In this document: positions 468-59,904 of the stretch, piece by piece
Numbering within the stretch: the stretch's first letter is position 1
Layout of the letters: every line of letters begins with the position of its first letter
From: an uncultured Bacilli bacterium
GTDB taxonomy: Bacteria > Bacillota_I > Bacilli_A > RF39 > UBA660
Direction of reading: 5' to 3'
Assembly: GCA_910580185.1 (NCBI GenBank)
Contig: CAJTWC010000003.1
Coordinates: 103,093 to 167,092, forward strand
Length of the DNA: 64,000 nt
Program-made: the position numbers and the translations under genes
The notes under the pieces: generated by a model
The model's input: only the letters and a program-made list of their open reading frames with translations
What the model was told of the DNA's origin: nothing
The model's database searches: none

Positions 468-528
468 GATATCATCACCTGTTTATAACCCTTCTATTAT
501 CTTATTTTATATGTTGATAATATCATAA

Positions 529-539
529 TCCCCCCCCCC
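529..539. repeat. homopolymeric poly(C)11 / poly(G)11 tract in the divergent intergenic region
   Basis: Eleven consecutive C directly visible in a roughly 25% GC background, lying between the divergent starts at 467 and 559/592. Confidence 0.9.
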
Positions 540-558
540 GTCAAGTTCTAAAAATAGC

Positions 559-1467
559 TTGTTGAAAATAAAATATACAATAGGAAAAAATATGAAAGAT
601 AAAAAAAACATAATTTTAATTTATATACTTCTTATATTAGAATTTCTATTATTATTTAACTCTAAAACAATAATAGAAAGTGTTAAAGAATCATCTTTGA
701 TGTTTGTTTTAAAAATACTTCCATCACTATTTCCAACCATGGTACTTGGTAGCCTGTTAATTAAAAATAACATACACATAATAATTCCAAATTTTATAAA
801 ACGTTTTTTTAATAATGTTTTTAACTTTAGCGATATAGCAACTAGTATATTTATAATTTCAATGTTAACCGGAACTCCAAGTAACGCATTATACATAAAT
901 GAATACGTCGATAAAAAACTTATATCTGAAAAAGAAGCTGAGTGCCTTATTTGTTCAACTCATTTTATAAATCCATTATTCGTAATTGGTGGCGTTGGTG
1001 TTGGCGTCTTTAATAGTACTAAAATAGGATTTTTACTACTAATACTTTTATGGACAAATAATTTTTTCAAAGCATACCTAAATAGAAATAATTTACATAA
1101 AACAAATAATAATCATATTCATATAGAGCAAAAAAACATAATAAAAACATTAATAGAATCAATTAAAAACAATATTAATTCATTATTAATGATATTTGGT
1201 ATAGTAACTACGTTTAATATATTAGTAACCTTAATATCAAATATTTTTAATTTATCATACCTAGCTAATTGTATAATTAATGGCTTTTTAGAAATGACTG
1301 GTGGAATAATTAAATTATCATCTTTAAATATAAATCTCATACCAAAATTTATTTTAGCATACATATTTTTAAATTTTGGTGGGATATGTATTCATATGCA
1401 AACTTTTGGGATGTTAGAAAATAAAAAAATAAGATATAGTAAATACCTTATTTTTAGATTATTTTAA
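559..1467 (+). CDS. YlbJ-like integral membrane protein with nucleoside-recognition (Gate) domains; real start probably the ATG at 592
   Basis: Polytopic membrane protein; LMFVLKILPSLFPTMVLGSLL and a second Gate-like segment resemble the sporulation integral membrane protein YlbJ family. Confidence 0.55.
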   Translation: MLKIKYTIGKNMKDKKNIILIYILLILEFLLLFNSKTIIESVKESSLMFVLKILPSLFPTMVLGSLLIKNNIHIIIPNFIKRFFNNVFNFSDIATSIFIISMLTGTPSNALYINEYVDKKLISEKEAECLICSTHFINPLFVIGGVGVGVFNSTKIGFLLLILLWTNNFFKAYLNRNNLHKTNNNHIHIEQKNIIKTLIESIKNNINSLLMIFGIVTTFNILVTLISNIFNLSYLANCIINGFLEMTGGIIKLSSLNINLIPKFILAYIFLNFGGICIHMQTFGMLENKKIRYSKYLIFRLF

Positions 1468-3266
1468 TTATTTTTACCAGTATCACCTACGTAAGATTTA
1501 CCTTTTTTATTACCTGAGATATAAACGTAAGGCGCTATTACATTTTTACCATATATAGGATATCCATTATTATCATACCTGTTATAAGACATTCCAACGT
1601 GTAGATGTGGGCCACTTGAATTTCCAGTATTTCCCGACGTTCCTATTTTTTGCCCTTGTTTTACTTTATCTCCAACTTTTACTGAAATACTATTTAAATG
1701 TCCATAGACAGTATAATACTTTTTACTATCTATTACATGTTTTAATAATACAAATTTACCAAAATGAACATATCCTTCACTTTTACAATTACTATTTGAA
1801 GAACATTTGTTAGTAGTAGTATCGGCTTTTATAACTTCACCACCATCCATTGCAACAACGGAAGTGCCTTTGCTAACTGATATATCGTTTCCACCGTGCC
1901 AAGCGCCACCATACGACGTACTATAATGCAAATGATCACTAGATGTTCTAGTACCTTCTGACCAACTACCTGTATTTTTAGTTGGATGAGCTAACTTACC
2001 AGTTACATATGCTAGCGTTTGATCTATTTTATATTTATCAGTATAGCAAACTTTATGGTTACCAGCCTCATCATAAACAACTATTTTTCCTTGCCTTGTC
2101 CTAGCACCATCATCACCAAGCGATTTATTTCTTGAGCCGGTGTTATTATTAGTCCATAAATACCAACTACCATCTTTTTTATTGGTATACCATTCCCATT
2201 TTGCCGTATCACTAGTAGGTTTTATATTTAATGTTACAGCTGTTTTATACCAAGTACCATCAGCTTTTGTACCACTTGCAGTTATAGTAGGACACTTTGG
2301 CGGGGTACGATCAATTTTAATTGTTTTTGAATCACAATTTTTACTCTTTTTTGTATTAGTATTAAACACTTGGGCTCTTATTACCCTGTTTCCTTCACCA
2401 CTAATATTAACAACGTGATTATTTTTTTCATAAGACTTTGAATATTTTGTAAATCCACCTTTTCCATTATCAGCGTACCAATACCATTTATTATACAAAT
2501 ATTTTTTCTCATCCATTGATATTTTTACATAGACTTTAGATGAATTATACACACTAGCCGGATTAGCGGTAAATGTTTTATTATCCTTAGAATAAGTAAA
2601 GGTTGGACATACTATGTCCGTTTTTGCACTATTTTTAGTTGTAGACTTCTTTTTGGTAGTTTCGGTTGTCAAAACTTTGGCAGTTGTACTAGTAGTAGTT
2701 GCAGCATTATTTGAACTAGTAGTTGTACCTATAGAAGATGTGGAATCATCTGATTCTTCATCTTCATCTATCGGATCATTTGGAATAGAGCTACTAGGCG
2801 TAATATTACGCTCCGAATAAGATAAAATATTTAGAGTACAAGAGCCAATTCCCGAAGGTATTTCCTTATTAGTATATTCATATAAAGTCCTGTGATATGT
2901 TTTAGACTCATCTTGATTATAAAAATCAAAATGAAGTGCAATTATACCATCACTAACCCTGCAAATTCCTGTATTTGTTGGAGTACTAACATCAATATTT
3001 ATTATGTTCTCAATATCATCAAAAATATTATCCTTATTTAAATCATCTAAGTTTTCACCATCATTTGTTAAATCTTTATATTTAGCATCAACTATTCTAT
3101 AAGCATAATCAACATCAATAAATTTTTGAGTTTCATCATTTGCTTTCTTATAAATATCTTGAACGGTTCTTAAAGTTTGAAAAAAATAAAGCATTGCTAC
3201 TGATACTATCAAAAAACTTACTATTAATTCTACTAAAGTCATACCTTTATTATTTAATTTTTTCAT
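1464..3266 (-). CDS. prepilin-type N-terminal cleavage/methylation domain protein fused to a C-terminal M23 (LytM-type) peptidase domain
   Basis: N-terminus KG|MTLVELIV with Glu at +5 and a hydrophobic helix (class III signal); Ser/Thr-rich linker; Ig-like DxAGN segment; C-terminal HxxxD (HGGNDI) and HLH (GPHLHVG) M23 motifs. Confidence 0.75.
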   Translation of the reverse strand: MKKLNNKGMTLVELIVSFLIVSVAMLYFFQTLRTVQDIYKKANDETQKFIDVDYAYRIVDAKYKDLTNDGENLDDLNKDNIFDDIENIINIDVSTPTNTGICRVSDGIIALHFDFYNQDESKTYHRTLYEYTNKEIPSGIGSCTLNILSYSERNITPSSSIPNDPIDEDEESDDSTSSIGTTTSSNNAATTTSTTAKVLTTETTKKKSTTKNSAKTDIVCPTFTYSKDNKTFTANPASVYNSSKVYVKISMDEKKYLYNKWYWYADNGKGGFTKYSKSYEKNNHVVNISGEGNRVIRAQVFNTNTKKSKNCDSKTIKIDRTPPKCPTITASGTKADGTWYKTAVTLNIKPTSDTAKWEWYTNKKDGSWYLWTNNNTGSRNKSLGDDGARTRQGKIVVYDEAGNHKVCYTDKYKIDQTLAYVTGKLAHPTKNTGSWSEGTRTSSDHLHYSTSYGGAWHGGNDISVSKGTSVVAMDGGEVIKADTTTNKCSSNSNCKSEGYVHFGKFVLLKHVIDSKKYYTVYGHLNSISVKVGDKVKQGQKIGTSGNTGNSSGPHLHVGMSYNRYDNNGYPIYGKNVIAPYVYISGNKKGKSYVGDTGKNN

Positions 3267-3270
3267 ACTC

Positions 3271-3837
3271 TTATCCTCCTAAATTGCAATGTCTATTTGG
3301 ATTAGGATTATCTATTTTAATTGATGCATATCTAGTTTCAGTAACATTTCCACGTGAATCTTTTTTTTCAAATTTTCCTATTAATCTATAAGATGCCTTA
3401 TCATTGGTGGTTTTTTTAAGTCTTAGTAAATACCTGTTAAAATTATAATCGCTAACCCTTGGGTCTGCCATATAGCCAGTAATATATAACTCTTCTAACT
3501 CGCCAAATTTATTGCTAGATGATAGTGTTATTTCATCTAAAACATTACCAGTGATTTCTCTTGCACCAACCTCGGTTTCAGTATATCCTGTACATATGCC
3601 ACTTATTTTTGATTCAACATTACTCTTTAATGTATCATCACTAAAAATTAAATCATTATACGCCCTTAACGTATATAGATCCTCTGTTTGATCATAATAT
3701 TTAGATCTTTTTACGAAATTATCATATAATTTAGACACATTTGGGTAAACATAAGCCATCACAATAGTTACTAAGGCAATAATAACAATAGCCTCAACTA
3801 AAAAGAAACCTTTATTATTCTTTTTCATTTTTACCAC
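3271..3837 (-). CDS. type IV pilin / pseudopilin-like protein
   Basis: N-terminus KG|FFLVEAIVIIALV (G-1, F+1, E+5) followed by a hydrophobic helix; 188 aa. Confidence 0.65.
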   Translation of the reverse strand: MVKMKKNNKGFFLVEAIVIIALVTIVMAYVYPNVSKLYDNFVKRSKYYDQTEDLYTLRAYNDLIFSDDTLKSNVESKISGICTGYTETEVGAREITGNVLDEITLSSSNKFGELEELYITGYMADPRVSDYNFNRYLLRLKKTTNDKASYRLIGKFEKKDSRGNVTETRYASIKIDNPNPNRHCNLGG

Positions 3838-3925
3838 CTTTTCTTTGCTTGCTATCTTCTAAAATATATTATATAATATTATTAGCATAAAATCTAGGGG
3901 TAGATAAAAGAATATAAAGGGAGAG

Positions 3926-5251
3926 ATGTATATGTTAAAGCAGATAGACTTTACTAAATTGCCTATTACAGAAATAGTAAATGAAATTATTTATACAGGT
4001 GCTCAAGCTGGAGCAAGTGACATACATTTCGATCCAAGTGGAAAAACAATTAAAGTTAGGTTTAGAATAGATGGTATTTTAATAGATTATACGGTTATAC
4101 CTGAAGCGATAAGAAAAAATTTAATAGCAAGATTAAAAATAATTTCAGGAATGGATATAACTGAATCTAGGCTACCTCAAGATGGAGCTATTAAAACGAT
4201 TATTAAAGATATTAAATTAGATATGCGTGTTTCTTCTTTGCCTACTAATATTGGTGAGAAAATAGTTATAAGAATACTTGATTATTCTGCATCGTTAAAC
4301 GGATTAGAAAGTCTTGGGTTTTCTCCTAATAATTTAAAAAAGATGAAAGAGTTAATAAAAGAACCAAACGGAATTATATTGGTAACGGGTGCAACAGGTT
4401 CTGGTAAATCAACAACTGTTTACTCATTACTGCAAATATTAAATACACCCGAAGTTAACTTAGTAACCGTTGAAGACCCAGTTGAAATGGGAATTGATGG
4501 AATAAATCAAATACAAGTAAATAGTGAAATTGGTCTTACCTTTGCCGAGGTTTTAAGATCTATCTTGCGTCAAGACCCAGACATTATAATGATTGGAGAA
4601 ATACGTGATGATGAGACAGCTAAAATAGCCGTTAGAGCATCTATTACAGGGCACTTAGTATTATCTACAATACATACTAATAACGCTCTTGCAACTATAG
4701 AACGTTTAACAGATATGGACGTTGAAACTTATCTTTTAGCAACATCTTTAAATGGTATTGTATCTCAAAAACTTGCTAGAAGAATATGTCCACATTGCAT
4801 AAAAAAAAGACCTGCTATTGAGTATGAAAAGAAATTAATAAAAGCACAACTAGGTGTTGATATTAATGAACTTTCTTACTCTGAAGGCTGCGATAAATGT
4901 GTTGGAGGTTATAAAGGAAGAATCGCTATACACGAGGTTTTAGTAATAACTCAAGAAATAAGAGATGCTATTTCAAATGGTATTTCTAAAGACGAATTAA
5001 GAAAATTAGTATATAAAGGTGATACCACTACCCTTTTACAAGATGGATTACAAAAAGTTTTACAAGGAACAACAACGATTGAAGAAATATTAAGACTAGT
5101 AGAACTTGATGATGAATCGGCAAAGATACTTATGCATAAAGATGATTCAGTAAGTAACACATCTAATAAAAATTTAACTAACAATACTCAAGATACAACT
5201 ATAGTTCAAAATAATACACCTAAAGATGATTTTGAAATGCTTGATATATAA
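3926..5251 (+). CDS. type IV pilus / competence assembly ATPase (GspE/PilB/ComGA family); start possibly at 3932 given the AAGGGAG RBS
   Basis: Walker A GATGSGKSTT, Asp box DPDIIMIGEIRD, His box, and the C-terminal tetracysteine motif CPHC...CDKC typical of GspE/PilB. Confidence 0.85.
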   Translation: MYMLKQIDFTKLPITEIVNEIIYTGAQAGASDIHFDPSGKTIKVRFRIDGILIDYTVIPEAIRKNLIARLKIISGMDITESRLPQDGAIKTIIKDIKLDMRVSSLPTNIGEKIVIRILDYSASLNGLESLGFSPNNLKKMKELIKEPNGIILVTGATGSGKSTTVYSLLQILNTPEVNLVTVEDPVEMGIDGINQIQVNSEIGLTFAEVLRSILRQDPDIIMIGEIRDDETAKIAVRASITGHLVLSTIHTNNALATIERLTDMDVETYLLATSLNGIVSQKLARRICPHCIKKRPAIEYEKKLIKAQLGVDINELSYSEGCDKCVGGYKGRIAIHEVLVITQEIRDAISNGISKDELRKLVYKGDTTTLLQDGLQKVLQGTTTIEEILRLVELDDESAKILMHKDDSVSNTSNKNLTNNTQDTTIVQNNTPKDDFEMLDI

Positions 5252-5253
5252 TA

Positions 5254-5285
5254 AAGACCTAATATAAAATTTTATATTAGGTCTT
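5254..5285. terminator. bidirectional intrinsic terminator between the convergent ATPase gene and the 193-aa gene
   Basis: Perfect inverted repeat AAGACCTAATATAAAATTTTATATTAGGTCTT flanked by T/A runs. Confidence 0.5.
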
Positions 5286-5853
5286 TTACTTCACGTTTAA
5301 TTTTCCTTTTAAATCTTTTTGGTATTCCATTATCATTTTCAACAACTGGTTTTGGAATAATTAAATTTAGCTTTCTAGAATTTATGTTTTTTTGTGTTTT
5401 TTTAAATAAGTCTCTTGATTTTATCTCAATAAGTAAATTATTTAATACATTAATAAAATCATTTATCTTAATTTCATAATTAGTATCATCAAACCAAAAA
5501 CCATCATGAATTTCTTTTTCACATAATTCTTCATTATTACTATTTAAAAATCTTGATACAAAATCAATCCAAACTTTTTCTCCAGTTTTTACTGGCATAA
5601 GATCTTCTAAATATCTAATAACTGTTTCAACATAACCGACTTCAATTCCTTCAAGAAAACTCTTTTTAACATTTCTTATTCCAATTGGAAATTCAAATTT
5701 ACTACCATAACCTGTTGGTACAGAAGAAGTTCTATTATTTTTGTCGTATTTTTCAATTATAATATAATCTATGATTTTAAATACATCTTTATAATCTTCC
5801 CTATTTAACATAACTTTAAATTTATCATCAATATATCTAATGTCTATATTCAT
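5272..5853 (-). CDS. hypothetical protein (193 aa), last gene of the pilC-pilD operon
   Basis: Intact ORF 78 nt downstream of the prepilin peptidase gene; no recognisable motif. Confidence 0.45.
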   Translation of the reverse strand: MNIDIRYIDDKFKVMLNREDYKDVFKIIDYIIIEKYDKNNRTSSVPTGYGSKFEFPIGIRNVKKSFLEGIEVGYVETVIRYLEDLMPVKTGEKVWIDFVSRFLNSNNEELCEKEIHDGFWFDDTNYEIKINDFINVLNNLLIEIKSRDLFKKTQKNINSRKLNLIIPKPVVENDNGIPKRFKRKIKREVKDLI

Positions 5854-5930
5854 TTTCTATTCCTCACATCTCGTGTAGTATTATAGTACTTAAATATCTA
5901 AAATGCAATAAAAACGTCAAAAAGACGTCT

Positions 5931-6764
5931 TTATCTAGTTAAAAATTCCAAAATCATGCTTAAATTTAAGCTGGTTAATAATACTATAACACTAGAGACC
6001 GAAAGATATGGTCCAAATGCTAAAACGTTATTATTATTTTTTACTAGGCTATAAACTGATAGTGGAAGCGCTATAAAAGCAGCCATAAAAATAACTACCA
6101 TTGACATATCAAAGCCTAATACTAAACCTATAATAAACATTAATTTTATATCTCCGCCGCCTAAACTTTCTTTCTTAAATAAAATATCTCCTAACACTTT
6201 AAATAAATAAAGAATTGCAAAAGCTCCAGCACCATTAAGAATCGGTATAGCAACATCAGTTAAAATATTCATCCTGTTCATTAAAGATTTTATAATCATT
6301 TCTAGAACAATTAATATTCCGCCTATTATTAGCACCTCATCGGGTATTATATAACATCTTAAATCACTTATTGTTATAATTATTAATACTGAAATAAACG
6401 TTATTGCAATAAGAAAATCAATATTCATCCCAAATACTAAGTACGACATTAAAAATAACACTCCAGTAATTAATTCAAACAACGGATATATAATAGATAT
6501 TTTATTTTTACACGATTTACACTTACCTCTTAAAAAGATGTAAGATATAACTGGTATAAGTTCATAAAACTTTAATTTATGATTACAATTAACACAGTGT
6601 GATGGTGGAAAAGCAATGGATAATTTGTTTGGTAATCTATAACCTACAACGTTATAAAAGGATCCAAATACTAATCCAAAAATAAATACTATAATTCCAA
6701 TAAAAACTTCGTTATCCACTCGTATCTTCCTTTCATTATTGTTGCATTGAAGTATACATACCAA
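5931..6764 (-). CDS. prepilin peptidase (A24 family, PilD/ComC)
   Basis: N-terminal CxxC...CxxC zinc tetrad (CVNCNHKL...CKSCKNKI), GSFYNVVGYRLP motif, polytopic membrane protein; 29-nt overlap with the upstream pilC so the start may be internal. Confidence 0.8.
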   Translation of the reverse strand: MVCILQCNNNERKIRVDNEVFIGIIVFIFGLVFGSFYNVVGYRLPNKLSIAFPPSHCVNCNHKLKFYELIPVISYIFLRGKCKSCKNKISIIYPLFELITGVLFLMSYLVFGMNIDFLIAITFISVLIIITISDLRCYIIPDEVLIIGGILIVLEMIIKSLMNRMNILTDVAIPILNGAGAFAILYLFKVLGDILFKKESLGGGDIKLMFIIGLVLGFDMSMVVIFMAAFIALPLSVYSLVKNNNNVLAFGPYLSVSSVIVLLTSLNLSMILEFLTR

Positions 6765-8589
6765 ACATTGGAATAATAACCGCTAGTAATATACCACCAA
6801 CTATAACCGCTAAAAATACTATTATAATAGGCTCAATAAGTGCTTTCATTTGGTTAATAATAGCTCTATGTTGTTCTTGGTAATAATCAGAAACCCTTTC
6901 CATCATAGGTCCTAGTCTACCTGTTTTTTCACCAGTAAGCAGCATTTGATATGCAATAATTGGAAAAGCCCAATGATCTTTAAACGCCTTTGAAATTGAA
7001 TCACCTTTATTTAGGTTTTTAGCAGTTTCATATATAAGTTTTTTATAAACTTCATTATTTGTAATTTTACTTAATACTTCCATTGAGTCGGTTATAAATA
7101 TATTATGATTTATTAAGTTTGCAAAAGTTTTAGCAAAAATAGTAATCTCATTATATATAATAATATCACCAAACACTGGTATATGCATCGTTAATTCTTG
7201 AACGTTTTTTCTAAATGTACGCGAGTTTTTAAAAGCATATATAAATACCGCGCAAATTGCAATTATAATAAAAAGTATTATATAAACGTTTGCTTGTAAA
7301 AAGTCTGATGCATTTAATATAAACTTAGTTATTGCAGGAAGTTCAGCATCCATCTCATTATATATTCCAGCAAATGACGGAATTGTAAATAACAATATAT
7401 ATACAACTACAATAATAGCAAAAACTAATATAACAATTGGATATGTTAGCGCTGATTTCATTTGTTTTCTATTTGTTTCAGATTCGCTATAATACTCAAC
7501 CATGTCATCTAACGTTTCAGTTAAATTACCAGTCATTTCAGCGGTTTTAATCATGTTTATTAATAATTTAGGAAAGGTATCTTTTCTTTTTTCCATAGCA
7601 ACACTTAAAACATCACCCATAGATAAGTCATAATATACTGCTTTCCATACGTTTTTATCATTGCCTTTTTTAGTTTGTTCTTCTAGTATTTTAACAGCCT
7701 CAGCTAGTGCTATACCAGATTTTAAATAAGCTGATAATTGCGATAGGTAAAAAATTAGTTTACTTTTCTTCATTTTATAAGTGATAATATCTCTTTTCGG
7801 TTTAGCAGCGGTAATTTCATATACCTCATATCCTTCTGCCAACAAAAATGAATGAACATCTACTCTTGATAAAGCCTCTATCGTACTTTTTTCTAACTCG
7901 CCTTTAGAATTTCTCGCTATATATTGAAATAATATAGGTTTTGCAAGTCTTGATGCGGTTTTACTATCTTTATCCTTAAACTGTTCATCTAAAACGGCTT
8001 TTTTAGCTTCTAATTCTACTTCTTCTTTTGGATTATAAGTTAGCTTTTTATAAAATCTTTTTAATTTATCTGAAAAAGTAACAGGTTCACCCTTTGCTTT
8101 TAAAGCTTCCTCTTTTTTATCCCTTTCAGCTTCAATAGCATCTTCTTTCTTTTGTTTTTCTAATTCTCTTTGCTTGCGTTCTTTTTCTCTTTTTTCATTT
8201 TCTATTCTTAATTTTTCTTGTTCTTCTATTCTTTTAAGTTCCTCTTGCCTTGCCTTTTTAACCATCTTATCAAAATACTTTTGGCGTTTTTTTATGTTTT
8301 CTTGACGCTCTTTTTTTAACTTTTCGGGATCTGTTTCTACTTGAGGAGTTTTTGGCGTATCATATGCTGATCTTACCCCTTTAACCACTTTTATTTTTTC
8401 ACCTTTTTTTATTTCAGGAATGGTAGCTTTCTTATTACTACTAGATATGTTTTGACTAATACCCTGCTTATTTTTAGTATCATTTTTTTTCATGATCCCA
8501 GATACAATATAATATGGAATAAGTAAAATAGACATAAATCCTCTATATATAAAAACGAATGGTAATAATAAAATATCTATCAAATTCAT
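6736..8589 (-). CDS. type II secretion system F family platform protein (PilC/ComGB-like) with a roughly 230-aa N-terminal extension (TM segment plus K/E-rich coiled-coil)
   Basis: C-terminal two-thirds match T2SSF-domain architecture (…ALTYPIVILVFAIIVVVYILLFTIPSFAGIY…, three TM segments); N-terminal region is charged low-complexity. Confidence 0.75.
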   Translation of the reverse strand: MNLIDILLLPFVFIYRGFMSILLIPYYIVSGIMKKNDTKNKQGISQNISSSNKKATIPEIKKGEKIKVVKGVRSAYDTPKTPQVETDPEKLKKERQENIKKRQKYFDKMVKKARQEELKRIEEQEKLRIENEKREKERKQRELEKQKKEDAIEAERDKKEEALKAKGEPVTFSDKLKRFYKKLTYNPKEEVELEAKKAVLDEQFKDKDSKTASRLAKPILFQYIARNSKGELEKSTIEALSRVDVHSFLLAEGYEVYEITAAKPKRDIITYKMKKSKLIFYLSQLSAYLKSGIALAEAVKILEEQTKKGNDKNVWKAVYYDLSMGDVLSVAMEKRKDTFPKLLINMIKTAEMTGNLTETLDDMVEYYSESETNRKQMKSALTYPIVILVFAIIVVVYILLFTIPSFAGIYNEMDAELPAITKFILNASDFLQANVYIILFIIIAICAVFIYAFKNSRTFRKNVQELTMHIPVFGDIIIYNEITIFAKTFANLINHNIFITDSMEVLSKITNNEVYKKLIYETAKNLNKGDSISKAFKDHWAFPIIAYQMLLTGEKTGRLGPMMERVSDYYQEQHRAIINQMKALIEPIIIVFLAVIVGGILLAVIIPMFGMYTSMQQ

Positions 8590-8708
8590 AAATACACCTT
8601 CCTATTCTATAGATAATTATAACATAAAATTTTATATATTTACCTATTAAATAATTATTTTTATAACATTTTAGGATATAAATCATATATTATATTAGAG
8701 GTGATTAT

Positions 8709-9092
8709 ATGTACGGAGCAATGCCTTTTATGATGCCTAATGCAATACCGGGTGCAACTGCTGCGGCAAGTGCGGCAAATTCCTTAGGAAGTGCAAGTAC
8801 TGCTACATCTTTTTTAGGAAAAATAAATTGGTCTTCACTACTATCGAACACCCAAAAAGTTTTAAACGTTGCAAATCAAGCAATACCGCTTTATTATCAA
8901 GCAAAGCCAATGTTTCAAAACCTAAAAGCGCTGGGACGAATCGGTAAAGAATTTAGTAAGATGGGAAATCAAAATAATACACAAAATAATACTCAAAATA
9001 ACATTGTCAACAACACGATGAATAGTGCACCTAGCACGCAAAACGATACTTCTTTTGAAGAAGATTTACCAACGCCAAAATTCTTTTTATAA
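8709..9092 (+). CDS. small Ala/Asn/Gln-rich hypothetical protein (possibly YqfQ-like, by position next to trmK-sigA-dnaG)
   Basis: 127-aa ORF with AGGTGA RBS; contains an NNTQNNTQNN peptide repeat; the family assignment is from synteny only. Confidence 0.4.
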   Translation: MYGAMPFMMPNAIPGATAAASAANSLGSASTATSFLGKINWSSLLSNTQKVLNVANQAIPLYYQAKPMFQNLKALGRIGKEFSKMGNQNNTQNNTQNNIVNNTMNSAPSTQNDTSFEEDLPTPKFFL

Positions 9093-9093
9093 A

Positions 9094-9127
9094 AACAGCT
9101 GAAACAAAATAAAGTTTCAACTGTTTT
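9094..9127. terminator. bidirectional terminator hairpin between the convergent 8709..9092 and trmK genes
   Basis: AACAGCTGAAAC-N8-GTTTCAACTGTT stem with T runs on both sides. Confidence 0.4.
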
Positions 9128-9798
9128 TATTTTAATATTCTTTTGACGTTTTTGTTTTTTAATCTTAATTTTATTTTTTTAATAAATTTAGATTTTGGTA
9201 TTTTATCTATTACTCGCTCGTTTGTTTTTATTAAATTAGTTAATAATTCATTAAATAACTCATTTTTATTATTTAAAAGAATTGGACCATACTCTAATTC
9301 TGTTTTATTATATTTTTTACTTCCTTTTTTAAATTTTATAACCGTGTAAATAATATTTCTTTCTTTTATTAGTTTTTCATCAAAGATAAAGTAACCAACA
9401 CTAGTTAAGTACTTTCTTATTTTATCTACTCCTACGTTAGACTGAATTATTATTGTATCTACGTTTTTTAACTTGTCTTTATCTTTTTCTAATATGTTTA
9501 TTATCTTGGTATCACCTAAGCCTGACATAACAATTAAATTTATATTATCTTCTTTTTTTATGTCACTTAGGCCATCGGCTAGTCTAAGATCAATGTTTTT
9601 TACATTATTTAACATGACGTTTTTCATAGCTTGATTTAAAGCTCCCTCAGTTATATCACACGCTACCGCTTTTTTTATTTTTTTACTTTGAAGTAAATAT
9701 ATATCTAAAAGCGCATGATCACATCCTATATCAGCTAATATAGAATCATCATCTACCATATCGGCTATACACTTTAATCTTTTTGATAAATTAATCAC
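9127..9798 (-). CDS. trmK: tRNA (adenine22-N1)-methyltransferase TrmK (YqfN family)
   Basis: N-terminal [19 protein letters not shown]-binding fold typical of TrmK; lies downstream of sigA as in Bacillus. Confidence 0.7.
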
Positions 9799-18154: not shown

Positions 18155-18390
18155 ATAAAAAGTTCATCCTAATAAAGGATGAACTTAATTAGTCCACGGT
18201 ACCACCTTAATTCATATCTTAATGATATGCATCTTAAAATCCCTAACGCGGACTAAACGTAATTATTTACTATCATTTCTATAATTAAGCTCCCAAGCTA
18301 CCTTCAGCTATTATTCATACAAGTTTACACCATACACTTGCTCTCTTTAATAAATAAATAACCTACTCCTCTTGTTCCTTGCTTTTTTTA
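18155..18390 (-). promoter_or_regulatory. T-box riboswitch leader of the HD-valS operon
   Basis: Minus strand reads AATTAAGGTGGTACCGTGGACT (T-box consensus AATTAGGGTGGTACCGCGG) overlapping the terminator hairpin GTTCATCC-N7-GGATGAAC plus U run (18156..18194); AGAGA element further 5'. A GUA-A triplet is a candidate Val specifier but is not verified. Confidence 0.75.
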
Positions 18391-38058: not shown

Positions 38059-38215
38059 GGCTATCGCTAGGAACGATTATGCCGTGGTACCATCCTATTT
38101 TGTTCTTAATTTTAATAACGGCTTTAAACCGGTAGTGATTAACTACTCTCCGAAAATAGCTTCAGTAACATTAAATATTAGCTTCCACCAACCGCTAACT
38201 CTCTTTAAATTAATA
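38046..38215 (-). promoter_or_regulatory. T-box riboswitch leader of the dNMP-kinase-like-alaS operon
   Basis: Minus strand AAATAGGATGGTACCACGGCATAA (T-box consensus) overlapping the terminator GGTACCACGGC...GCCTTGGTACC plus U run, directly before the GGAGG RBS; AGAGAG element; GCU-A candidate Ala specifier (unverified). Confidence 0.7.
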
Positions 38216-38284
38216 ATTACTTACTAATTTTTCATCAACAAATTAAATATATATATATTATATCAGATTATATATATAAAGTCA

Positions 38285-40303
38285 TTAATAACTTCTAAAA
38301 TATTTTGTATATATAGCAAGTTTATTTGAATTTATATTGCCGTAGCTCAAATAATATACGTGTTTTGTTAAGTTTGGAGAATCCTTATCCCATCTTCCAC
38401 AATCCTCTGCTTTATATCCATCAGCTAAATCTGATTCTCTACAATCTCTAAGTTGCAAATAAGAATTATCTTCATTTATCTTTATCTGTATGCCACCGTC
38501 AGCTCTTCTAGTAAATAATTTTGATGTATAATCTGAAGTATCAAATCCTTCTTTTACTTTTGTGTAAATATAATCACTTACAGTATCATCAGACCATTTT
38601 ATCTTATAAACTAGTCTTCTTTCGAAATCTCCTACATACATACACGCAGAACCAGCATATGTCATCCAATTATTATTCCAAGCGACATTCCATTTCTGGG
38701 CATGAGTATAATTTTCACCAACGTTTAAAATGATTGAATTAATTCCCCTTTTATATCTATTATCATAGTCATATGTACCTGAACAAGCAAATATACCCTT
38801 ACCAGAATTTGTTCCAATAGGGCCAGCGCCACTCATACCGCCATCTTTAACGTCCCTTTCGTCAAGCATTACTGCTATATCAGATATAGAACAATCTTCT
38901 TTAGCGTCACAACTGCCACCTGTATACTTATCTACTTTGGCTCTATAACCACTATTAGCGCAAGAACCACTAAGTTTAGTTTCGGAGCATTCGCTGTATA
39001 ATTTAACTGTTGTTGAACAAGTTCCTGTATTTCCTGCAATGTCGGTCATATTAATTGTCACTGTCCTGTTACCCGCTGCAGTAACATAAAATTTATCAAT
39101 ATCATTTGGTTTTGTTTGACTAAATTCATAAGTAGGTGCTTCATCCCATTTATCAGTTTTCCAGGTCCAAGTATTAACATCATCAGAAATACTATTTGTC
39201 ATAAAGTAAGCTGGCCCTTTAAACCACCCATTTTTCATTTTATTAGTAGTTTTTGGTTCTATACTACAACTAGGAGAGGTATTATCATAGCCATATTTTG
39301 AACCGCATCTTCTTTGATTACCCGCCTTATCTTTAACCACTGCATTATAATATCCAGACCTAGATGTAATATTTTCAGAATACGTGTTAGCACTACTTTT
39401 TCTAACTAACTCCGATTCCTTATACTGATAAATACCATCAACACCGCTATTAACGGTTCCCTCATCGTTTCCTGTATATGTTATTCTAGGTTGATTACCT
39501 TTCTTATACCACTGTATATCTCCAACTTTATTACCGATTGTTCCTCCACTGACATTATAGGAACAACTTGGATATTTAGTATCCTTTCTAATTGTAGGTT
39601 TTGCAATCCACTTTTTCCCTGATATGTTTTCTAACTCCACATCAACACTTTTATTAATATCATTTTCTATAGTAGTGCAATATCCATTAGCTTCTTTAGT
39701 GGAAATAACTATTCCATCTATTTTAGCACTTGCAATTGCACCATTACCTTTTGTATCGGGCTTTATACAAACCTTTAATTTTCCTCTTTCTCCTAATTTG
39801 GTAATATTAAACCAACCATCATTAGATAATTTTGTTGTACCATTTTCTTTATAATAATTAACTTCTCCAGATGGTCCACCAACATCTTTTGTTTCTACTA
39901 AATTTTTATTTTCACATTTACCATCTACTTTAGCAACTTTAGTATTACCATTAAAAGAAGCAATATATTTACTTCCTTCTTTTGTTACACTGACTTCTGA
40001 GCATTCATCTAAAGAAGTCCCATCTCTTGGGTCAATTACCTTGCCTAAATAATCCTCTTGTACTAATTTTCCAACCGTAATTGATCCAGAAGACCTATCT
40101 GATAATCCTTCAAATAAATATTCATTAGCTATAAAGTAATCCGTTGCTGCCGCTTCTACTTGAAGTTTTACCGTTTTCCATGATTCATCTTTTTTGTTTT
40201 TGCTAACCTTATTAAAACTTATTATTGCAAGTACAAGTATAGTTAGCATTAATGTTATTGTTATTAGTAATTCTACTAATGTAAAACCGTTTTTCTTTTT
40301 CAT
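38285..40303 (-). CDS. giant prepilin-type protein (672 aa) with a Cys-rich extracellular region
   Basis: N-terminus NG|FTLVELLITITLML (E+5), a roughly 110-aa conserved pilin-like head shared with the next gene, Ig-like DKAGN segment, many Cys and NxS/T sites. Confidence 0.65.
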   Translation of the reverse strand: MKKKNGFTLVELLITITLMLTILVLAIISFNKVSKNKKDESWKTVKLQVEAAATDYFIANEYLFEGLSDRSSGSITVGKLVQEDYLGKVIDPRDGTSLDECSEVSVTKEGSKYIASFNGNTKVAKVDGKCENKNLVETKDVGGPSGEVNYYKENGTTKLSNDGWFNITKLGERGKLKVCIKPDTKGNGAIASAKIDGIVISTKEANGYCTTIENDINKSVDVELENISGKKWIAKPTIRKDTKYPSCSYNVSGGTIGNKVGDIQWYKKGNQPRITYTGNDEGTVNSGVDGIYQYKESELVRKSSANTYSENITSRSGYYNAVVKDKAGNQRRCGSKYGYDNTSPSCSIEPKTTNKMKNGWFKGPAYFMTNSISDDVNTWTWKTDKWDEAPTYEFSQTKPNDIDKFYVTAAGNRTVTINMTDIAGNTGTCSTTVKLYSECSETKLSGSCANSGYRAKVDKYTGGSCDAKEDCSISDIAVMLDERDVKDGGMSGAGPIGTNSGKGIFACSGTYDYDNRYKRGINSIILNVGENYTHAQKWNVAWNNNWMTYAGSACMYVGDFERRLVYKIKWSDDTVSDYIYTKVKEGFDTSDYTSKLFTRRADGGIQIKINEDNSYLQLRDCRESDLADGYKAEDCGRWDKDSPNLTKHVYYLSYGNINSNKLAIYTKYFRSY

Positions 40304-40420: not shown

Positions 40421-42178
40421 CTAATCAATTTCAATGTCACTATATGTCCAAGTATCATAGTTTCTACCTCTACATATAGTAACTTTTTCTTTAGAACACT
40501 TGCTTGAATCATCTATTTTTACAACAGCACATACTGTCACATATCTATTTTTAGATGGGTTACATTTGCTTGAACCTGTCATATAAGCACTACAACCTGT
40601 TCTTTTATAAAATGTTTTGTTATCTATTGCAGTACTGTGCCAAGAAATATGATGATTAGTTTTATTAAAGCTACTTCCCCATTCTCCTGCAAATCCTTCT
40701 AAAGTAAAACTATTCTTCGTTTTTAATATTGCGCATGCTTGTTCACCATTGGTTTTATTATCAGCGTAAGTCCAAGGCCCTATTCCATTGCAAGAAACAT
40801 TAACGCCTAAATTAATATCAAAACTATCAATCATCCCATATATATCATTACTTTTAGTTATCTCACAAGTAGTACAGTTTTTTGTATCTTTTTCAGTATC
40901 ACTTGAGCAAACACTTCCGTCATATGTAGATATTTTTTTTACGGTTCTAGTCCTAGTTTTTATGCCCCCTTTGCACTTTCCATATTCTGACCAAGAACCT
41001 TTTTGGGTTTTTATACCACCACAATCGGAATATCTAGTCGTTTTATTAGAACAGTTATTATTAGAATTTTTATCTTTAGTATTACTTTCTTGCAATATTT
41101 TTCCATTACCACACTTATTACTACACGTTGCGTCGCTTTTATTATACCAATTTCCATCTGTTACTCTATTTTGCACTTCACATTCTTTATACAAAGTATA
41201 CTGATTACTAATAGTATTTTCATTTCCGGCTTTATCTTTTATTTTAACTAAGACATTTTTTGTAGAGCCATCATATTTAATATTATTTTCAAAACTGTAG
41301 TCAACATTATTTTTAGTCCATTTTAATTTTCCTACATTCTTATTTTCAAGATAATTTGTATTTCCTATTTTAACAAATTCTATTCCACTTAAATTATCAT
41401 TTACATCAAAGTTTAATTTAACATTCCTTGATGGCCATGTATCTTTACTTTTAATTGATATGTTCCCATCAGGCAAAGTAACATCCCTACGGTAGCTTAT
41501 TTGCGTCATATATTTTTTTCCAGATGAATTAGTAACTATAATATTCAATGTTTTTCCGCTTGTTTCATCAATTATTTTATATTCTGTACCAGTTATATTA
41601 CCAATTATAGTTGATATAATAGGGCCATTACCATTAGTTTTTGGGTATACAACAACACTCGGATCTTTATGTTGAACATTAAGCCATGATGGAAAATTAT
41701 TATATTCTTTATTGCCATATTTTGCTTTAACCACAGCGGTAGGACCACCTGGTTCTATCATAGCAACGGAATCAATAATATCACAATTTTTATTTTCGGA
41801 GTATTTTGAACTTTCATCAAATTTAACATCATACTTATTTTTAACTTTTGTTACGTTTACTATTGCACACTTCGATATTGATTTACCCGTAACTGGATCA
41901 ATTACTTTATTTAAATAATCCTCTTTCACCAATTTTCCTACAGAAATATTTCCATTACTACCATTTATTAATCCTTCAAACAAATATTCATTATTAGTAA
42001 AATATTCTTGCGCTGCATCTTCTATTTCTTTTTCTACGAGTTTCCATGAATCTTCCTTTTTAGCTTTACTTACCCTATTAAAATTTATTATTGCAAGTAC
42101 AAGTATTAATAACATTAATGATATTGTTATTATCAATTCAACTAATGTAAAACCATTTTGCTTTTTCATAAAAACCAC
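40421..42178 (-). CDS. giant prepilin-type protein paralog (585 aa), Cys-rich
   Basis: N-terminus NG|FTLVELIITISLML; the first roughly 110 aa are near-identical in pattern to 38285..40303, then divergent; KDKAGNEN Ig-like segment. Confidence 0.65.
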   Translation of the reverse strand: MVFMKKQNGFTLVELIITISLMLLILVLAIINFNRVSKAKKEDSWKLVEKEIEDAAQEYFTNNEYLFEGLINGSNGNISVGKLVKEDYLNKVIDPVTGKSISKCAIVNVTKVKNKYDVKFDESSKYSENKNCDIIDSVAMIEPGGPTAVVKAKYGNKEYNNFPSWLNVQHKDPSVVVYPKTNGNGPIISTIIGNITGTEYKIIDETSGKTLNIIVTNSSGKKYMTQISYRRDVTLPDGNISIKSKDTWPSRNVKLNFDVNDNLSGIEFVKIGNTNYLENKNVGKLKWTKNNVDYSFENNIKYDGSTKNVLVKIKDKAGNENTISNQYTLYKECEVQNRVTDGNWYNKSDATCSNKCGNGKILQESNTKDKNSNNNCSNKTTRYSDCGGIKTQKGSWSEYGKCKGGIKTRTRTVKKISTYDGSVCSSDTEKDTKNCTTCEITKSNDIYGMIDSFDINLGVNVSCNGIGPWTYADNKTNGEQACAILKTKNSFTLEGFAGEWGSSFNKTNHHISWHSTAIDNKTFYKRTGCSAYMTGSSKCNPSKNRYVTVCAVVKIDDSSKCSKEKVTICRGRNYDTWTYSDIEID

Positions 42179-42879: not shown

Positions 42880-44355
42880 TTATCTTAATAATTTTTCACC
42901 ATCAAGGTCATATGTAACTGTCTTATCATCAATATATTTTACATGATAATCAGCAAGTATATAAGACGTAGGAACATTTTCATATGATATATTATTACAA
43001 ATTTCACTAATACTTTGTTTACTTATCTTTCCGCTTAATACATCTTCTTCAGAACAATATTTTTCAAAAGATCTTTCTGTCATTAAATTATTTTTTTCCT
43101 TATTAGTTAAATTAATTTTTTCACCTGTTATAACATCATCAAAATACATTCCATTGCTATCATAAGTAATATAACCACATGAACAAGCTTTTTCGTGTTC
43201 ATATAAATCATAATCGTATAATATTCTTAAACGTGCTCCATCTTCTCTTATAAATAAAGCTTCATCGCTATTAGCTGTTAATCTTGTGCCTACTCTTACT
43301 TTGCTTGTTAAATCAAATTTATGTGGGCTATCTATAGCAATTAAGTTTTGCATTAATTCTTCAATTTTTATTTTAGATACTACAGCATTAATATTTTTCT
43401 TACACACTTCTTTAACATCATAGCTAGATAATTTTAATTCCATACCATCCATAGTATCTTCTATAAAAGCTTTAGAAATAATACCATTAATCGCAGCTTC
43501 AGTACTAATAACTGAACAAAATGGAACTGCCCTAAAATCACAAGAATTAAATTTTGAATCATCATTCAATTCAATAGTTACCCCAGTTATAGCATTTTCA
43601 AAATATACTCCAAAAGCACTATATGTAATATAACCACAACTAAAAGTATCTTCGTATGTAGATGAGTTACTAGTAACTAAAAGTTGTAAAACAGCACCAT
43701 CTTCTCTTTTTAATAAAATATCATCTTGATTAATAAGTTCTATATCATTATTTTTAGTATTATTCGTTTTATTTTTATCAACAATACTTGAGTCTAATAA
43801 ATTATAAGTACACTCGCTACCTTCTACACTTTTAATTTTAAATTCTGTATCTAATTCAGTTAATTCTGCATTTACATCCTTTTTAACAGCAAGATTAGTG
43901 TACGTTGGATAACCCTTATTAGTCAATTTTAATTTTTTCATATTTTTTCTTACTAAATCAATATCAATAATTCCATCTAAAACATCATCTTGCTTACATA
44001 CAGATGAAAAACTAGTATAATAAATTTCACAATCATTAAACATAGATATATCTGATAAATTAAACCTTGTCTTTGATAAAGCATCTTCAAAATATACACC
44101 ATATTTATCATAAGTTGCATAACCTGCATAAAACTTTGTTTCATCAAGACTTACTTTATCAATACATAGTAAGGTAAGTAAAGAACCATCTTCCCTTTTA
44201 AATAATATATCTTCCATTTCATCTAAAGACTCTGTAGCTACTATAGATTGTGTTTCGGATTTAGTTTGATTAGCATTACATCCTACAAAAGTAAAGGCTA
44301 TTGTACCAGCCAAAAGCATTGATAAAAACTTATTATTCACTTTTAATTTTCCCAT
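42880..44355 (-). CDS. lipoprotein with three tandem roughly 100-aa repeat domains
   Basis: Lipobox FTFVGC; repeats LFKREDGSLLTLL.../LLKREDGAVLQLL.../LFIREDGARLRIL... each with CGY(I/A)TY...GVYF(E/D). Confidence 0.55.
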   Translation of the reverse strand: MGKLKVNNKFLSMLLAGTIAFTFVGCNANQTKSETQSIVATESLDEMEDILFKREDGSLLTLLCIDKVSLDETKFYAGYATYDKYGVYFEDALSKTRFNLSDISMFNDCEIYYTSFSSVCKQDDVLDGIIDIDLVRKNMKKLKLTNKGYPTYTNLAVKKDVNAELTELDTEFKIKSVEGSECTYNLLDSSIVDKNKTNNTKNNDIELINQDDILLKREDGAVLQLLVTSNSSTYEDTFSCGYITYSAFGVYFENAITGVTIELNDDSKFNSCDFRAVPFCSVISTEAAINGIISKAFIEDTMDGMELKLSSYDVKEVCKKNINAVVSKIKIEELMQNLIAIDSPHKFDLTSKVRVGTRLTANSDEALFIREDGARLRILYDYDLYEHEKACSCGYITYDSNGMYFDDVITGEKINLTNKEKNNLMTERSFEKYCSEEDVLSGKISKQSISEICNNISYENVPTSYILADYHVKYIDDKTVTYDLDGEKLLR

Positions 44356-46978: not shown

Positions 46979-47923
46979 TTAACTAGCGCTAACTTTTTCT
47001 TTTACTTTATTCAACTTATAAGTAGTTAGAAAAATGTCTAAGTCACTTACGTATTCTAATATTAACTTATTATTCTTTCTTGATATTATTATACCCATCG
47101 TTTTATTATGATAAGGTCCTTTTAATGTTTTATCTATTACTTTCATATAATTAAGTGTTTAACCAATGTCTTTAGCAGTTACTTCATCCTTTTTTAGTTC
47201 ACACGCCATGAATCTATTTAACTTATAATTGAAGAATAATAAGTCTATAAAATAATTCTTATCGTTATACGTTACTTTGTATTCACTTCCAACAAAAGTA
47301 AATCCTGTTCCTAATTCTAAGAATACTTTTTCTAATTCTCTTAATATGTATTTTTTAAGTACCTTCTCGCTTAACTTTTCTTCTTCATCTATATTTATAA
47401 TTATTGGGTCATGTAACATATCCTCTATTCTTAACTCATTATTTTCTCTTTCACCTATTAACTTTATATTCTTTTTATCAGCGTATGACAATCTATTAAA
47501 AGAATCTGTTTTAATTTCATTTAATAATCCTCTTACTGATAAGTTATTTTCTATACACCTATTTATATAGTAATTTCTTTCATTTTCGTTACCAAAAGAA
47601 AGAATATAATTCCAATGAGACCAACTCAATTGGGTCAACAGCGTTGACCTTTTCTTATCTTTAAAATAACTATAAAATTTTCTCATTCTTTTCAAATTTT
47701 TCTGACTATAGCCTTTACCATATTGTTCTACTAATTTTTTAGACCATTCCTTAATCAAATTATCTCCATATTTTGCCCTTGTTTCTCCACCTTGAGCTTC
47801 TATTAATAATCTACCTATCTCAAAGTATGTTTTTATCGTTTCCTTATTACTTTCTAAATATCTTACCCTATCATTTACTTCTTTTTCTTCTATTATATTT
47901 TTTATCTCATTAAAATAATTCAT
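46979..47923 (-). pseudogene. DUF1016/YhcG-family PD-(D/E)xK nuclease gene interrupted by a frameshift/stop near 47159
   Basis: ORF 47159..47923 carries the DUF1016 N-domain and GFTFVGSEY...IDLLFFN...ELK nuclease core, then stops. The conserved C-terminal end (…NKTMGIIISRKNNKLILEYVSDL…) continues in another frame at 46979..47146. Confidence 0.6.
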
Positions 47924-55337: not shown

Positions 55338-56294
55338 TTATTTTAATTTATTTTGAATACTATTTTTAACTTTTTCCTTATAATTTATAAATTCCATGCT
55401 ATTTTTTTCTATTTGCAAAACAAAATTTATTCTACCAAGTAATTTTCTTAAATATAAATCTTTATCTTTTATTCCGATTCTATTTAAATGACTATCTATA
55501 CCATATTTTTTTATGTAGTATATTTCTTGTCTTATTTTCCTTTTATAACTTTTTCTTATATTTAGTTTTTCATTTACGACAATACCAGTTACTTGCTGCC
55601 TTGTTTTGTTACTTACTACTTTTATTTTTTCTTTATTTAACCTAAATCCTTCATTAAATAAACATTCATTAACATGTCTTATAATTTCTTTTACATTAAA
55701 ATCACCAGAAAACGTCATGTCATCAGAATACCTGGTATAAGAGATATTTCTTTTGCTGCAATAACGTCCAACATGTTCATCAAAATCTCTTAAAACCAAA
55801 TTAGATATGTACCCGCTGGTAGGAGCTCCCTGTGGTAACTTATTATTATAAACACATAAATTTGTAAGTAACATCCCTAGTTTTTTGGGATATAATGATT
55901 CATTAAAGCATGCGTTATAAACTTTATTAAACGTAATATTATCAAAGAAGTTTTTAATATCTAATTTTAATATTGTTTTTTGGTTTATATGCGGTATTGC
56001 ATTATTAGCCAAAGAAGTTTTCTTTTTATAAGCAGTAGCATACTTTGATATTATTCTTTCTTCTAATACGTTAGTTAAAATATTTTTTTGTATTTGTTTT
56101 AATGCTTTAGAAGATTCATTTAAAAATCTTAAACCACCTTTTTTCTTATGAATAATTATTTCTTCATAGTTAGAATCTATATTATTACTGATACCATATA
56201 AAATCTTATTAACTTTTTTGATATCAGATGAATTAACCAAATTAAAAGATAATAATAGTTCGTTATATTTATCAATCGTTAAATACTTAAACAT
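55338..56294 (-). CDS. retron-type reverse transcriptase
   Basis: RT motifs LDIKNFFDNI (1/2), LPQGAPTSG (4), YTRYSDDMTF (5, YxDD); retron hallmarks NAIPH (NAxxH) and RQQVTGIV (VTG); 318 aa; GGAGA RBS; flanked upstream by an msr-msd-like ncRNA. Confidence 0.8.
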   Translation of the reverse strand: MFKYLTIDKYNELLLSFNLVNSSDIKKVNKILYGISNNIDSNYEEIIIHKKKGGLRFLNESSKALKQIQKNILTNVLEERIISKYATAYKKKTSLANNAIPHINQKTILKLDIKNFFDNITFNKVYNACFNESLYPKKLGMLLTNLCVYNNKLPQGAPTSGYISNLVLRDFDEHVGRYCSKRNISYTRYSDDMTFSGDFNVKEIIRHVNECLFNEGFRLNKEKIKVVSNKTRQQVTGIVVNEKLNIRKSYKRKIRQEIYYIKKYGIDSHLNRIGIKDKDLYLRKLLGRINFVLQIEKNSMEFINYKEKVKNSIQNKLK

Positions 56295-59674: not shown

Positions 59675-59895
59675 GTAAAAAGTCCATCCTAATTAAAGGA
59701 TGAACTTGTAAAGTCCACGGTACCACCTTTGTTCTAGATATTAATCTAGCACTCAAATCTCGTAACGTGAGATAACGTTTTAACCTAACAATTCAATTAA
59801 ACAGCTCCAGAACCATCTATATAGGTTTTGCTATGTATGCTTTCACCTAATCATACTCTCTTTTAATAGTTTTACCTATACTCTTTCCTTCATTG
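59675..59895 (-). promoter_or_regulatory. T-box riboswitch leader of the NUDIX-metG operon
   Basis: Minus strand CAAAGGTGGTACCGTGGACT T-box sequence overlapping terminator GTTCATCC-N8-GGATGGAC plus U run (59682..59706); AGAGAG box; AUG-A candidate Met specifier (unverified). Confidence 0.75.
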
Positions 59896-59904
59896 CTTTT
59901 AACA

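Follow-up and report, generated by a model that had tools for sequence, protein, structure and literature searches.

The modular pilins of Streptococcus sanguinis, PilB with a vWA module and PilC with a lectin module (PMC8179133; PMC9934059), are among the described proteins most like one encoded in the 64,000-nucleotide stretch of contig CAJTWC010000003.1, from an uncultured Bacilli bacterium, that we analyzed here (the whole stretch is called the window below). The gene at 1464..3266 encodes a 600-aa prepilin with a C-terminal M23 peptidase domain, hereafter M23-pilin, and it falls within the published definition of a modular pilin, namely a pilin module at the N-terminus followed by a C-terminal domain that is not particular to pilus biology (PMC8179133). 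Like the S. sanguinis proteins, it has a class III signal, a small pilin module and, grafted C-terminally, a non-pilus domain, belongs to a monoderm host and is encoded beside pilus machinery. The differences lie in the module, which is a peptidoglycan hydrolase and not an adhesin, in the connection, which consists of an ~80-aa disordered linker and two Ig domains instead of a short loop, and in the machinery, which is core-only. We consider it probable that M23-pilin is a modular, and probably minor, pilin in a core-only type 4 filament, on which it would present a peptidoglycan endopeptidase as an accessory module.

Several other systems share single traits with this protein. Lysostaphin, LytM, zoocin A and EnpA share with it the fold and the HxxxD / H / HxH active site, but these bacteriolytic M23 enzymes are Sec-secreted or phage-encoded and carry SH3b-type or other wall-targeting domains, whereas the window protein has a pilin module replacing the signal peptide and no recognizable wall-binding domain. 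LasA (staphylolysin) of Pseudomonas aeruginosa is an M23 bacteriolysin exported by the Xcp type II secretion system, and its export thus depends on a type 4 filament machine; it is, however, a free substrate pushed out by the pseudopilus, whereas the window enzyme is covalently part of a pilin. PrgK, CwlT and TcpG are hydrolases that open the wall for the Gram-positive conjugation channel. Conjugative type IV secretion system (T4SS) hydrolases of this type resemble M23-pilin in being attached to an envelope-spanning machine and differ from it in being 1100-1330-aa multi-hydrolases encoded inside T4SS clusters, while M23-pilin lies outside any. In the archaeal bindosome, sugar-binding proteins carry class III signals, so that large functional proteins again bear a prepilin-type signal, but the system is archaeal and its cargo solute-binding, whereas the N-terminal part of the window protein is predicted to be a complete bacterial pilin module. 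Mpg (NGO1686) of Neisseria gonorrhoeae, finally, acts in the periplasm as an M23B peptidase and modulates the expression of type IV pili (PMC11980366). It offers a functional link between an M23 peptidase and type IV pili, but is a separate protein of a diderm host, unfused to a pilin.

The M23-pilin gene lies on the minus strand, a point on which the initial annotation needs correction, and its ATG is preceded at 8 nt by an AGGAGG Shine–Dalgarno sequence. The protein consists of five parts: the prepilin signal, a pilin module of ~125 aa, an ~80-aa S/T-rich disordered linker, two Ig-like beta-sandwiches and the M23 domain. In a full-length AlphaFold model based on a 57-sequence alignment, with a mean predicted local distance difference test score (pLDDT) of 72, the chain starts with a long helix and a small sheet of three strands, continues through a disordered stretch into two beta-sandwiches and ends with the M23 domain. 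The order of parts read earlier from the sequence, a prepilin signal followed by an S/T linker, an Ig-like region and an M23 domain with intact motifs, was thus confirmed by Pfam, by composition and by AlphaFold. The parts map to the window as follows:

1464..3266, minus strand: M23-pilin gene, 600-aa modular prepilin with C-terminal M23 (open reading frame (ORF) with ATG start; Pfam N_methyl and Peptidase_M23)
3243..3266, minus strand: prepilin leader MKKLNNKG, residues 1-8 (N_methyl; G8 and E13 invariant in 32 homologues)
2871..3242, minus strand: pilin module, residues 9-132 (AlphaFold; homology to ~115-aa stand-alone pilins)
2622..2870, minus strand: S/T-rich linker, residues 133-215, predicted disordered (Ser+Thr content; pLDDT <50)
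2007..2621, minus strand: two tandem Ig-like beta-sandwich domains, residues 216-420 (pLDDT >90; structural match to SiiE BIg)
1497..1952, minus strand: M23/LytM metallopeptidase domain, residues 439-590 (Pfam; lysostaphin alignment; Foldseek)

The pilin–M23 fusion is not an assembly artefact, because the same continuous ORF and neighborhood are found in several independent assemblies. The uninterrupted ORF with the same synteny is present in a cluster of 9 members, in a second cluster of 4, in protein P0005 and in a metagenome-assembled genome (MAG) at NCBI. All these sequences derive from metagenomes or MAGs, in which assembly or gene calling could have joined a pilin gene to a separate hydrolase gene, but the agreement between independent assemblies, one of them with the locus on a 186-kb contig, makes the probability of such an error practically negligible. 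The fusion is also rare. Among the best 150 of 30,322 HMMER hits, obtained from a database of 1.84 billion representative proteins, a class III signal was combined with M23 in three clusters at 50% identity, which held 9, 4 and 1 sequences at the 90% level; a search with the M23 domain only added one fragment. The MAG locus L010, whose exact sequence lies outside that protein collection, is a fourth occurrence. A word-indexed search with the full protein gave 8 hits and was swamped by the low-complexity linker, and searches with separate modules and the exhaustive HMMER search were more informative. Homologous fusions in related genomes, which the initial annotation had proposed to look for, were found in the loci L003, L004 and L010. 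The 264 architectures catalogued for modular pilins in the 2021 InterPro survey include peptidase modules of the S74 and M26 types but no N-terminal IPR012902 followed by IPR016047 (PMC8179133); our literature searches found no paper describing a pilin–M23 fusion. The description of the protein as unusual agrees with both the few clusters and the missing catalogue entry. The fusion is real and rare, and it places a peptidoglycan-hydrolase cargo on a known modular-pilin design; independent fusions of very different pilin or M23 sequences may exist elsewhere.

The N-terminus reads MKKLNNKG/MTLVELIVSFLIVSVAMLYFF (the slash marks the predicted cleavage site); the 8-residue leader is basic, Gly occupies position -1 and Glu position +5, and ~20 residues form a hydrophobic tract. 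Pfam N_methyl (PF07963) matched residues 5-26 with 23.1 bits (cutoff 21.2), and TIGR02532 gave 14.6 bits, under its cutoff of 16.3. A search with residues 1-157 only, together with the exhaustive HMMER search of the 1.84 billion representative proteins, recovered a pilin family of ~75 proteins that share the pattern MKKLNNKG[MVLI]TL[VI]ELIVSF...YF[FY]QT. Many members are 109-135 aa long, an ordinary size for small pilins, and have a conserved LYxY strand at the end; G8 (-1) and E13 (+5) were invariant among 32 of them. The class III signal KG/MTLVE recognized initially is borne out by this invariance and by the N_methyl score, and PilD would cleave after Gly8. Syntenic orthologues of M23-pilin include ordinary pilins of 115-116 aa, which supports its identity as a pilin. 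In an AlphaFold model of residues 1-165 (32-member alignment, mean pLDDT 79), helices span residues 6-68 and 78-89 and three strands lie within residues 100-131; the predicted module is consistent with a pilin fold, short of proof. The N_methyl match barely exceeds its cutoff and residue +1 is Met where the classical residue is Phe, as one might expect if the N-terminus were simply a Sec signal or transmembrane anchor of the common kind and the gene lay next to pilus genes by chance. We consider this very improbable given the invariant Gly at -1 and Glu in the hydrophobic stretch, the typical small-pilin length of many homologues and a placement beside PilD, PilC, PilB and another pilin that is kept in at least five loci.

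Between the pilin module and the enzyme, the linker (residues 133-215) contains 40% Ser+Thr, rising to 48% in residues 166-215, and residues 129-212 have a pLDDT <50 and are predicted to be disordered. The Ig-like DxAGN segment of the initial annotation is Ig-like and contains the motif as DEAGN, but the AlphaFold model shows two tandem beta-sandwich domains and not one, at about residues 216-322 and 323-420 (both with pLDDT >90), the motif being in the second. Foldseek matched the tandem sandwiches to the BIg repeats of SiiE. The region had no sequence match in PDB, Pfam or NCBIfam, and its sequence relatives are mostly other large proteins with prepilin signals.

The M23 domain is predicted to be a catalytically intact peptidoglycan endopeptidase. 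Pfam Peptidase_M23 (PF01551) matched residues 457-562 with 80.3 bits (cutoff 28.7), and the residues H457xxxD461, H523 and H554xH556 are all present and align to the zinc ligands and catalytic histidines of lysostaphin. The HxxxD and HxH motifs noted earlier therefore hold on careful alignment, and the five catalytic and zinc residues are invariant among five homologues. With Foldseek, the predicted domain matched lysostaphin (4qpb) with a template modeling (TM) score of 0.69 and a root-mean-square deviation of 2.6 Å, LytM with TM scores of 0.73-0.78 and EnpA with 0.72-0.75. The alignment to lysostaphin also revealed a 16-residue Cys-containing insertion, TTTNKCSSNSNCKSEG, in the window domain.

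When the pilin fusions are set aside, the best M23 matches (61-71% identity) were the C-termini of 1100-1330-aa proteins that also bear SpoIID and/or NlpC/P60 domains, and a subfamily-specific insertion after a KADTTTNK motif is common to these multi-hydrolases and the window domain. From their gene neighborhoods, the multi-hydrolases look like wall hydrolases of a conjugative element. The one in locus L014 is flanked by VirB6-like, TraC-like, VirB4-like and coupling-protein genes, and the pattern of ORF sizes is the same in L011 and L012 (a Paratractidigestivibacter genome and a Mycoplasmatota MAG), with T4SS genes annotated in L014 only. To the M23 domain of the window, those of these L014, L011 and L012 proteins are 68-71% identical. 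M23-pilin itself is not within a T4SS cluster, no T4SS genes being found near it in the window. The multi-hydrolases (1144-1334 aa, SpoIID or NlpC/P60 with M23) are encoded at 10001..13435 in L014, 4542..8516 in L011 and 4353..8357 in L012, in very similar clusters hosted by a Coriobacteriia genome (Paratractidigestivibacter), a Mycoplasmatota MAG and one unassigned contig, and their likeness suggests one mobile element with a host range that may cross phyla.

M23-pilin is the second gene of a two-pilin operon, the first pilin ending 4 nt upstream of it, and the genes for PilD, a PilB-type ATPase and PilC all lie within 5.5 kb, in a synteny kept in L003, L004, L005 and L008. The initially assumed tie to a prepilin peptidase and pilus machinery is thereby matched by the neighborhood. 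The cluster comprises, in addition to M23-pilin:

3271..3828, minus strand: first pilin, 185 aa, leader MKKNNKG/FFLVE (ORF; AAGGTGG ribosome-binding site before ATG 3828)
3926..5251, plus strand: PilB/GspE-type assembly ATPase, 441 aa, divergent from the pilin operon (Pfam T2SSE, 427 bits)
5272..5853, minus strand: 193-aa protein inside the cluster (no Pfam or NCBIfam match)
5931..6764, minus strand: prepilin peptidase PilD, A24 family, with N-terminal Cys-rich domain (A24_N_bact 121 bits, Peptidase_A24 50 bits)
6736..8589, minus strand: PilC/GspF platform protein, 617 aa (two Pfam T2SSF matches; NCBIfam GspF 261 bits)

The called ORF of the first pilin starts with GTG at 3837 (3271..3837), and the true start is likely the ATG at 3828 that follows the AAGGTGG. 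The protein scored 15.8 bits with N_methyl, under the cutoff, and was found in L003, L004, L005, L008 and L010. Because the cluster holds only two pilin genes, gene order and variability lead us to presume that it is the major (shaft) pilin. L005 and L003 have an ORF at the position of the 193-aa protein, L004 and L008 have none, and only the L005 copy is detectably similar (70%). Residues 1-220 of PilC form an N-terminal extension, unusual for PilC/GspF, that contains a transmembrane segment and a stretch of high charge, rich in Lys and Glu (EELKRIEEQEKLRIENEKREKERKQRELEKQKKE...), and the PilC length of 602-617 aa is kept in L004, L005 and L008.

The profile scores point to a divergent, core-only type 4 filament system, because the ComGA, ComGB, GspE, GspF and PilB equivalog matches all fell below their cutoffs. 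The ATPase scored 484 bits with the NCBIfam model for GspE, 478 with PilB and 271 with ComGA, and there is no PilM/N/O, PilT or secretin gene in the cluster. A Com pilus was rejected on ComGA (271 bits against a cutoff of 300) and ComGB (157 against 240), on the presence of only two pilin genes and on ComGC/ComGE matches far below cutoffs. A type II secretion system was likewise rejected, with GspE at 484 bits against a cutoff of 630, GspF at 261 against 424, and secretin and GspC/L/M unmatched among the cluster proteins scanned with Pfam and NCBIfam. The Com pilus is comparable in simplicity to this core-only system, but the cluster lies outside that family (PMC10191384). At 5253..5286, where pilB and the gene for the 193-aa protein converge, a perfect 15-bp AT-rich hairpin could plausibly act as a terminator in both directions; it alone stood out, as promoter and terminator scans otherwise gave results no better than shuffled sequence. 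A role in sporulation, raised by the flanking ylbJ and yqfQ, was dismissed since no link other than adjacency was found.

Comparison with related loci showed that the enzyme cassette is accessory, strain-variable and recombining. The gene order kept in the relatives is PilC, PilD, in some of them an ORF at the place of the 193-aa protein, PilB on the opposite strand, a pilin of ~186 aa, a variable pilin and ylbJ on the opposite strand. The protein at the variable-pilin position has the following lengths:

L005: 115 aa
L007: 116 aa
L008: 274 aa
L004 and L010 (MAG): 432-437 aa, pilin-linker-M23 without Ig domains
L003 and the window: 594-600 aa

The closest comparison is with L005, in which the proteins flanking the variable pilin are 94-98% identical to those of the window. 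In blastn, the DNA of the two was 93% identical over 9200..3076, from PilC through codon ~63 of M23-pilin, and 91% identical over ylbJ (1469..510). Between these flanks, the window has 1.6 kb and L005 has 160 bp encoding a small pilin head, the break points being the end of alpha-1 and the stop codon:

1470..3075, minus strand: strain-variable cassette comprising the pilin head, linker, two Ig domains and M23 (blastn break points against L005)

The clean replacement at these two points suggests that the pilin position is a slot for swapping cargo. L003 is more distant (PilD 71%, YlbJ 61% and first pilin 59% identical) and retains the Ig domains at 86% and M23 at 90%. The Ig-Ig-M23 cassette was also found, at 75-86% identity, in P0003 and P0004, where it follows an ordinary transmembrane anchor and the gene neighborhood lacks pilus genes, and other long members of the pilin family bear DUF285 or LRR_5 (BspA-like) modules, or unassigned ones. 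No silent cassettes or paralogues of the M23-pilin modules were found elsewhere in the window. In sum, alpha-1 does not vary, head and cargo can be swapped, and the M23 cassette travels from one carrier to another. One of the contigs in this comparison, CAYVPV010000009.1 (L001/L009), is labelled 'uncultured Muribaculaceae bacterium' and encodes a PolC-type polymerase, EzrA and other Firmicutes-type genes as well as the low-GC P0004; its bin label is probably wrong.

If M23-pilin is a modular pilin, it would enter the membrane via its class III signal and be cut after Gly8 by the adjacent PilD, and the PilB ATPase and PilC platform would build the mature subunit into a minimal core-only type 4 filament. 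It would probably be a low-abundance subunit, likely at the tip, with the shaft formed by the upstream 185-aa pilin, and the enzyme, held by a flexible stalk that measures tens of nanometres, could be taken by the filament through and past the wall. For the enzyme itself, we lean, with somewhat less assurance than for the pilin assignment and a little short of an even chance, toward an outward-facing role in which it cleaves the peptidoglycan of cells touched by the filament, or peptidoglycan found elsewhere outside the producer, for antagonism or for the release of nutrients or DNA. We favor this role because a near-identical strain has the machinery without the enzyme and because sister alleles bear adhesin-type modules. 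The antibacterial or adhesive tip offered as one option by the initial annotation fits better than its other option, given the variable position and the LRR/BspA-like modules on the same pilin in relatives, and would still be an interpretation of these comparisons. More tentatively, the filament might be a contact-dependent lytic device that breaches the walls of neighbors, whether for killing, for predation or for the release of DNA or nutrients to be taken up by the producer. The pilin C-terminus would then be a swappable effector slot by analogy to polymorphic toxin systems, with a constant alpha-1 and an exchangeable head and cargo, which we regard as similarly conjectural.

Several observations weigh against a filament-borne, outward-facing enzyme. 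No immunity gene is evident near M23-pilin, and the cleavage, polymerization and enzymatic activity of the protein are all predictions from sequence and models. The AlphaFold model, a check that the initial annotation had proposed for pilin-like packing of the N-terminal helix, has a long alpha-1 and a small sheet, but a Foldseek search of the pilin module against PDB gave no significant match, and the pilin-family profile found only weak geopilin matches among PDB sequences (E=0.68), confined to the signal motif. The identity of the major subunit is a choice between two pilin genes made by gene order and variability. The transmembrane-anchored form of the cassette shows that the enzyme can work as a simple membrane-tethered protein, and kinship to the hydrolases of conjugation, enzymes that open the wall of the donor itself, would agree equally well with action on the producer's own wall. 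This kinship and the membrane-anchored version are the reasons why two other explanations stay alive.

One of these is that M23 makes local cuts in the thick peptidoglycan of the producer itself to let the filament be pushed out, which the initial annotation had put forward as a possible purpose of the enzyme. The nearest M23 relatives outside the family, the hydrolases of conjugative T4SS-type clusters, speak for it, and with its long tether a subunit anchored in the membrane could extend across the wall. L005, however, has a plain 115-aa pilin with no M23 beside its 94-98% identical proteins, and other relatives bear LRR-type or unassigned modules in place of M23; an accessory, strain-variable module argues against a need for it in crossing the producer's own wall. 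The filament system thus appears to need no M23 module, unless an unlinked hydrolase substitutes for it in L005. To our knowledge, a dedicated hydrolase is not a requirement for the type 4 pili and Com pili characterized in Gram-positive bacteria. We also counted against this explanation that the word 'peptidoglycan' never occurs in a 2023 review of filament assembly (PMC10191384), and overall we consider it unlikely. Still less probable, in our assessment, is that the prepilin signal merely provides a PilD-processed membrane anchor or sorting signal and that the enzyme is a tethered wall-remodelling hydrolase that is never polymerized. The 75-86% identical cassettes on transmembrane-anchored proteins away from pilus genes agree with such a role, as do two more very large window proteins with prepilin signals that look poorly suited as shaft subunits. 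But the N-terminal module of M23-pilin goes beyond a mere signal, since alpha-1 and a beta-sheet head are both predicted, as in a whole pilin; its orthologues include small pilins that stand alone, and the gene is co-transcribed with another pilin gene that ends 4 nt upstream.

Were the display of the enzyme on a filament true, type 4 filaments, which are known to stick, pull, take up DNA and secrete, would gain enzymatic peptidoglycan attack, and the modular-pilin idea would extend from adhesins to lytic effectors. L005 and the window form a natural experiment, in which near-identical machinery occurs with the enzyme present and absent, and the core components with two pilins could provide a compact model for the loading of bulky cargo on a type 4 filament in a single-membrane bacterium.

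The rest of the window indicates the chromosome of a low-GC Firmicutes-type bacterium, an assignment made because of the housekeeping neighbors, three T-box leaders and a GC content of 27%. The surrounding genes include rpoD, dnaG, tRNA synthetases, Lon, trigger factor and MltG/YceG. The T-box leaders and the two further genes with prepilin signals are:

18172..18388, minus strand: T-box leader upstream of a valS-like operon (above the Rfam gathering score)
38066..38247, minus strand: T-box leader upstream of the dNMP-kinase/alaS operon (above the Rfam gathering score)
59693..59902, minus strand: T-box leader upstream of the metG-side operon (above the Rfam gathering score)
38285..40303 and 40421..42178, minus strand: large prepilin-signal proteins of 672 and 585 aa (motif scan; N_methyl 25.3 and 27.3 bits)

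The 672- and 585-aa proteins have the signal KNG/FTLVEL and Cys-rich C-terminal regions with 'DKAGN'-type motifs. Their genes lie 35 kb from the pilus genes, between the T-box/dNMP-kinase/alaS block and a DUF308 gene, and their relatives P0027, P0038 and P0087 share the Ig-like domain of M23-pilin. By their signals, the two proteins may be further cargo-bearing PilD substrates. At 42880..44355 (minus strand), the window encodes a predicted 491-aa lipoprotein with a signal ending ...FVGC and no Pfam match, in which a unit of ~130 aa (REDGxxLxLL...GYxTYxxxGxYFxDxxxG) is repeated internally, three copies in all. Amid the housekeeping genes lie a few defence genes, all on the minus strand: a retron-type reverse transcriptase at 55338..56294 (PADLOC RT_Ec107-like, 411 bits), an AbiQ homologue at 56692..57207 (132 bits) and, further from these two, a YhcG/PDC-S02 PD-(D/E)xK nuclease at 47159..47923 (218 bits).

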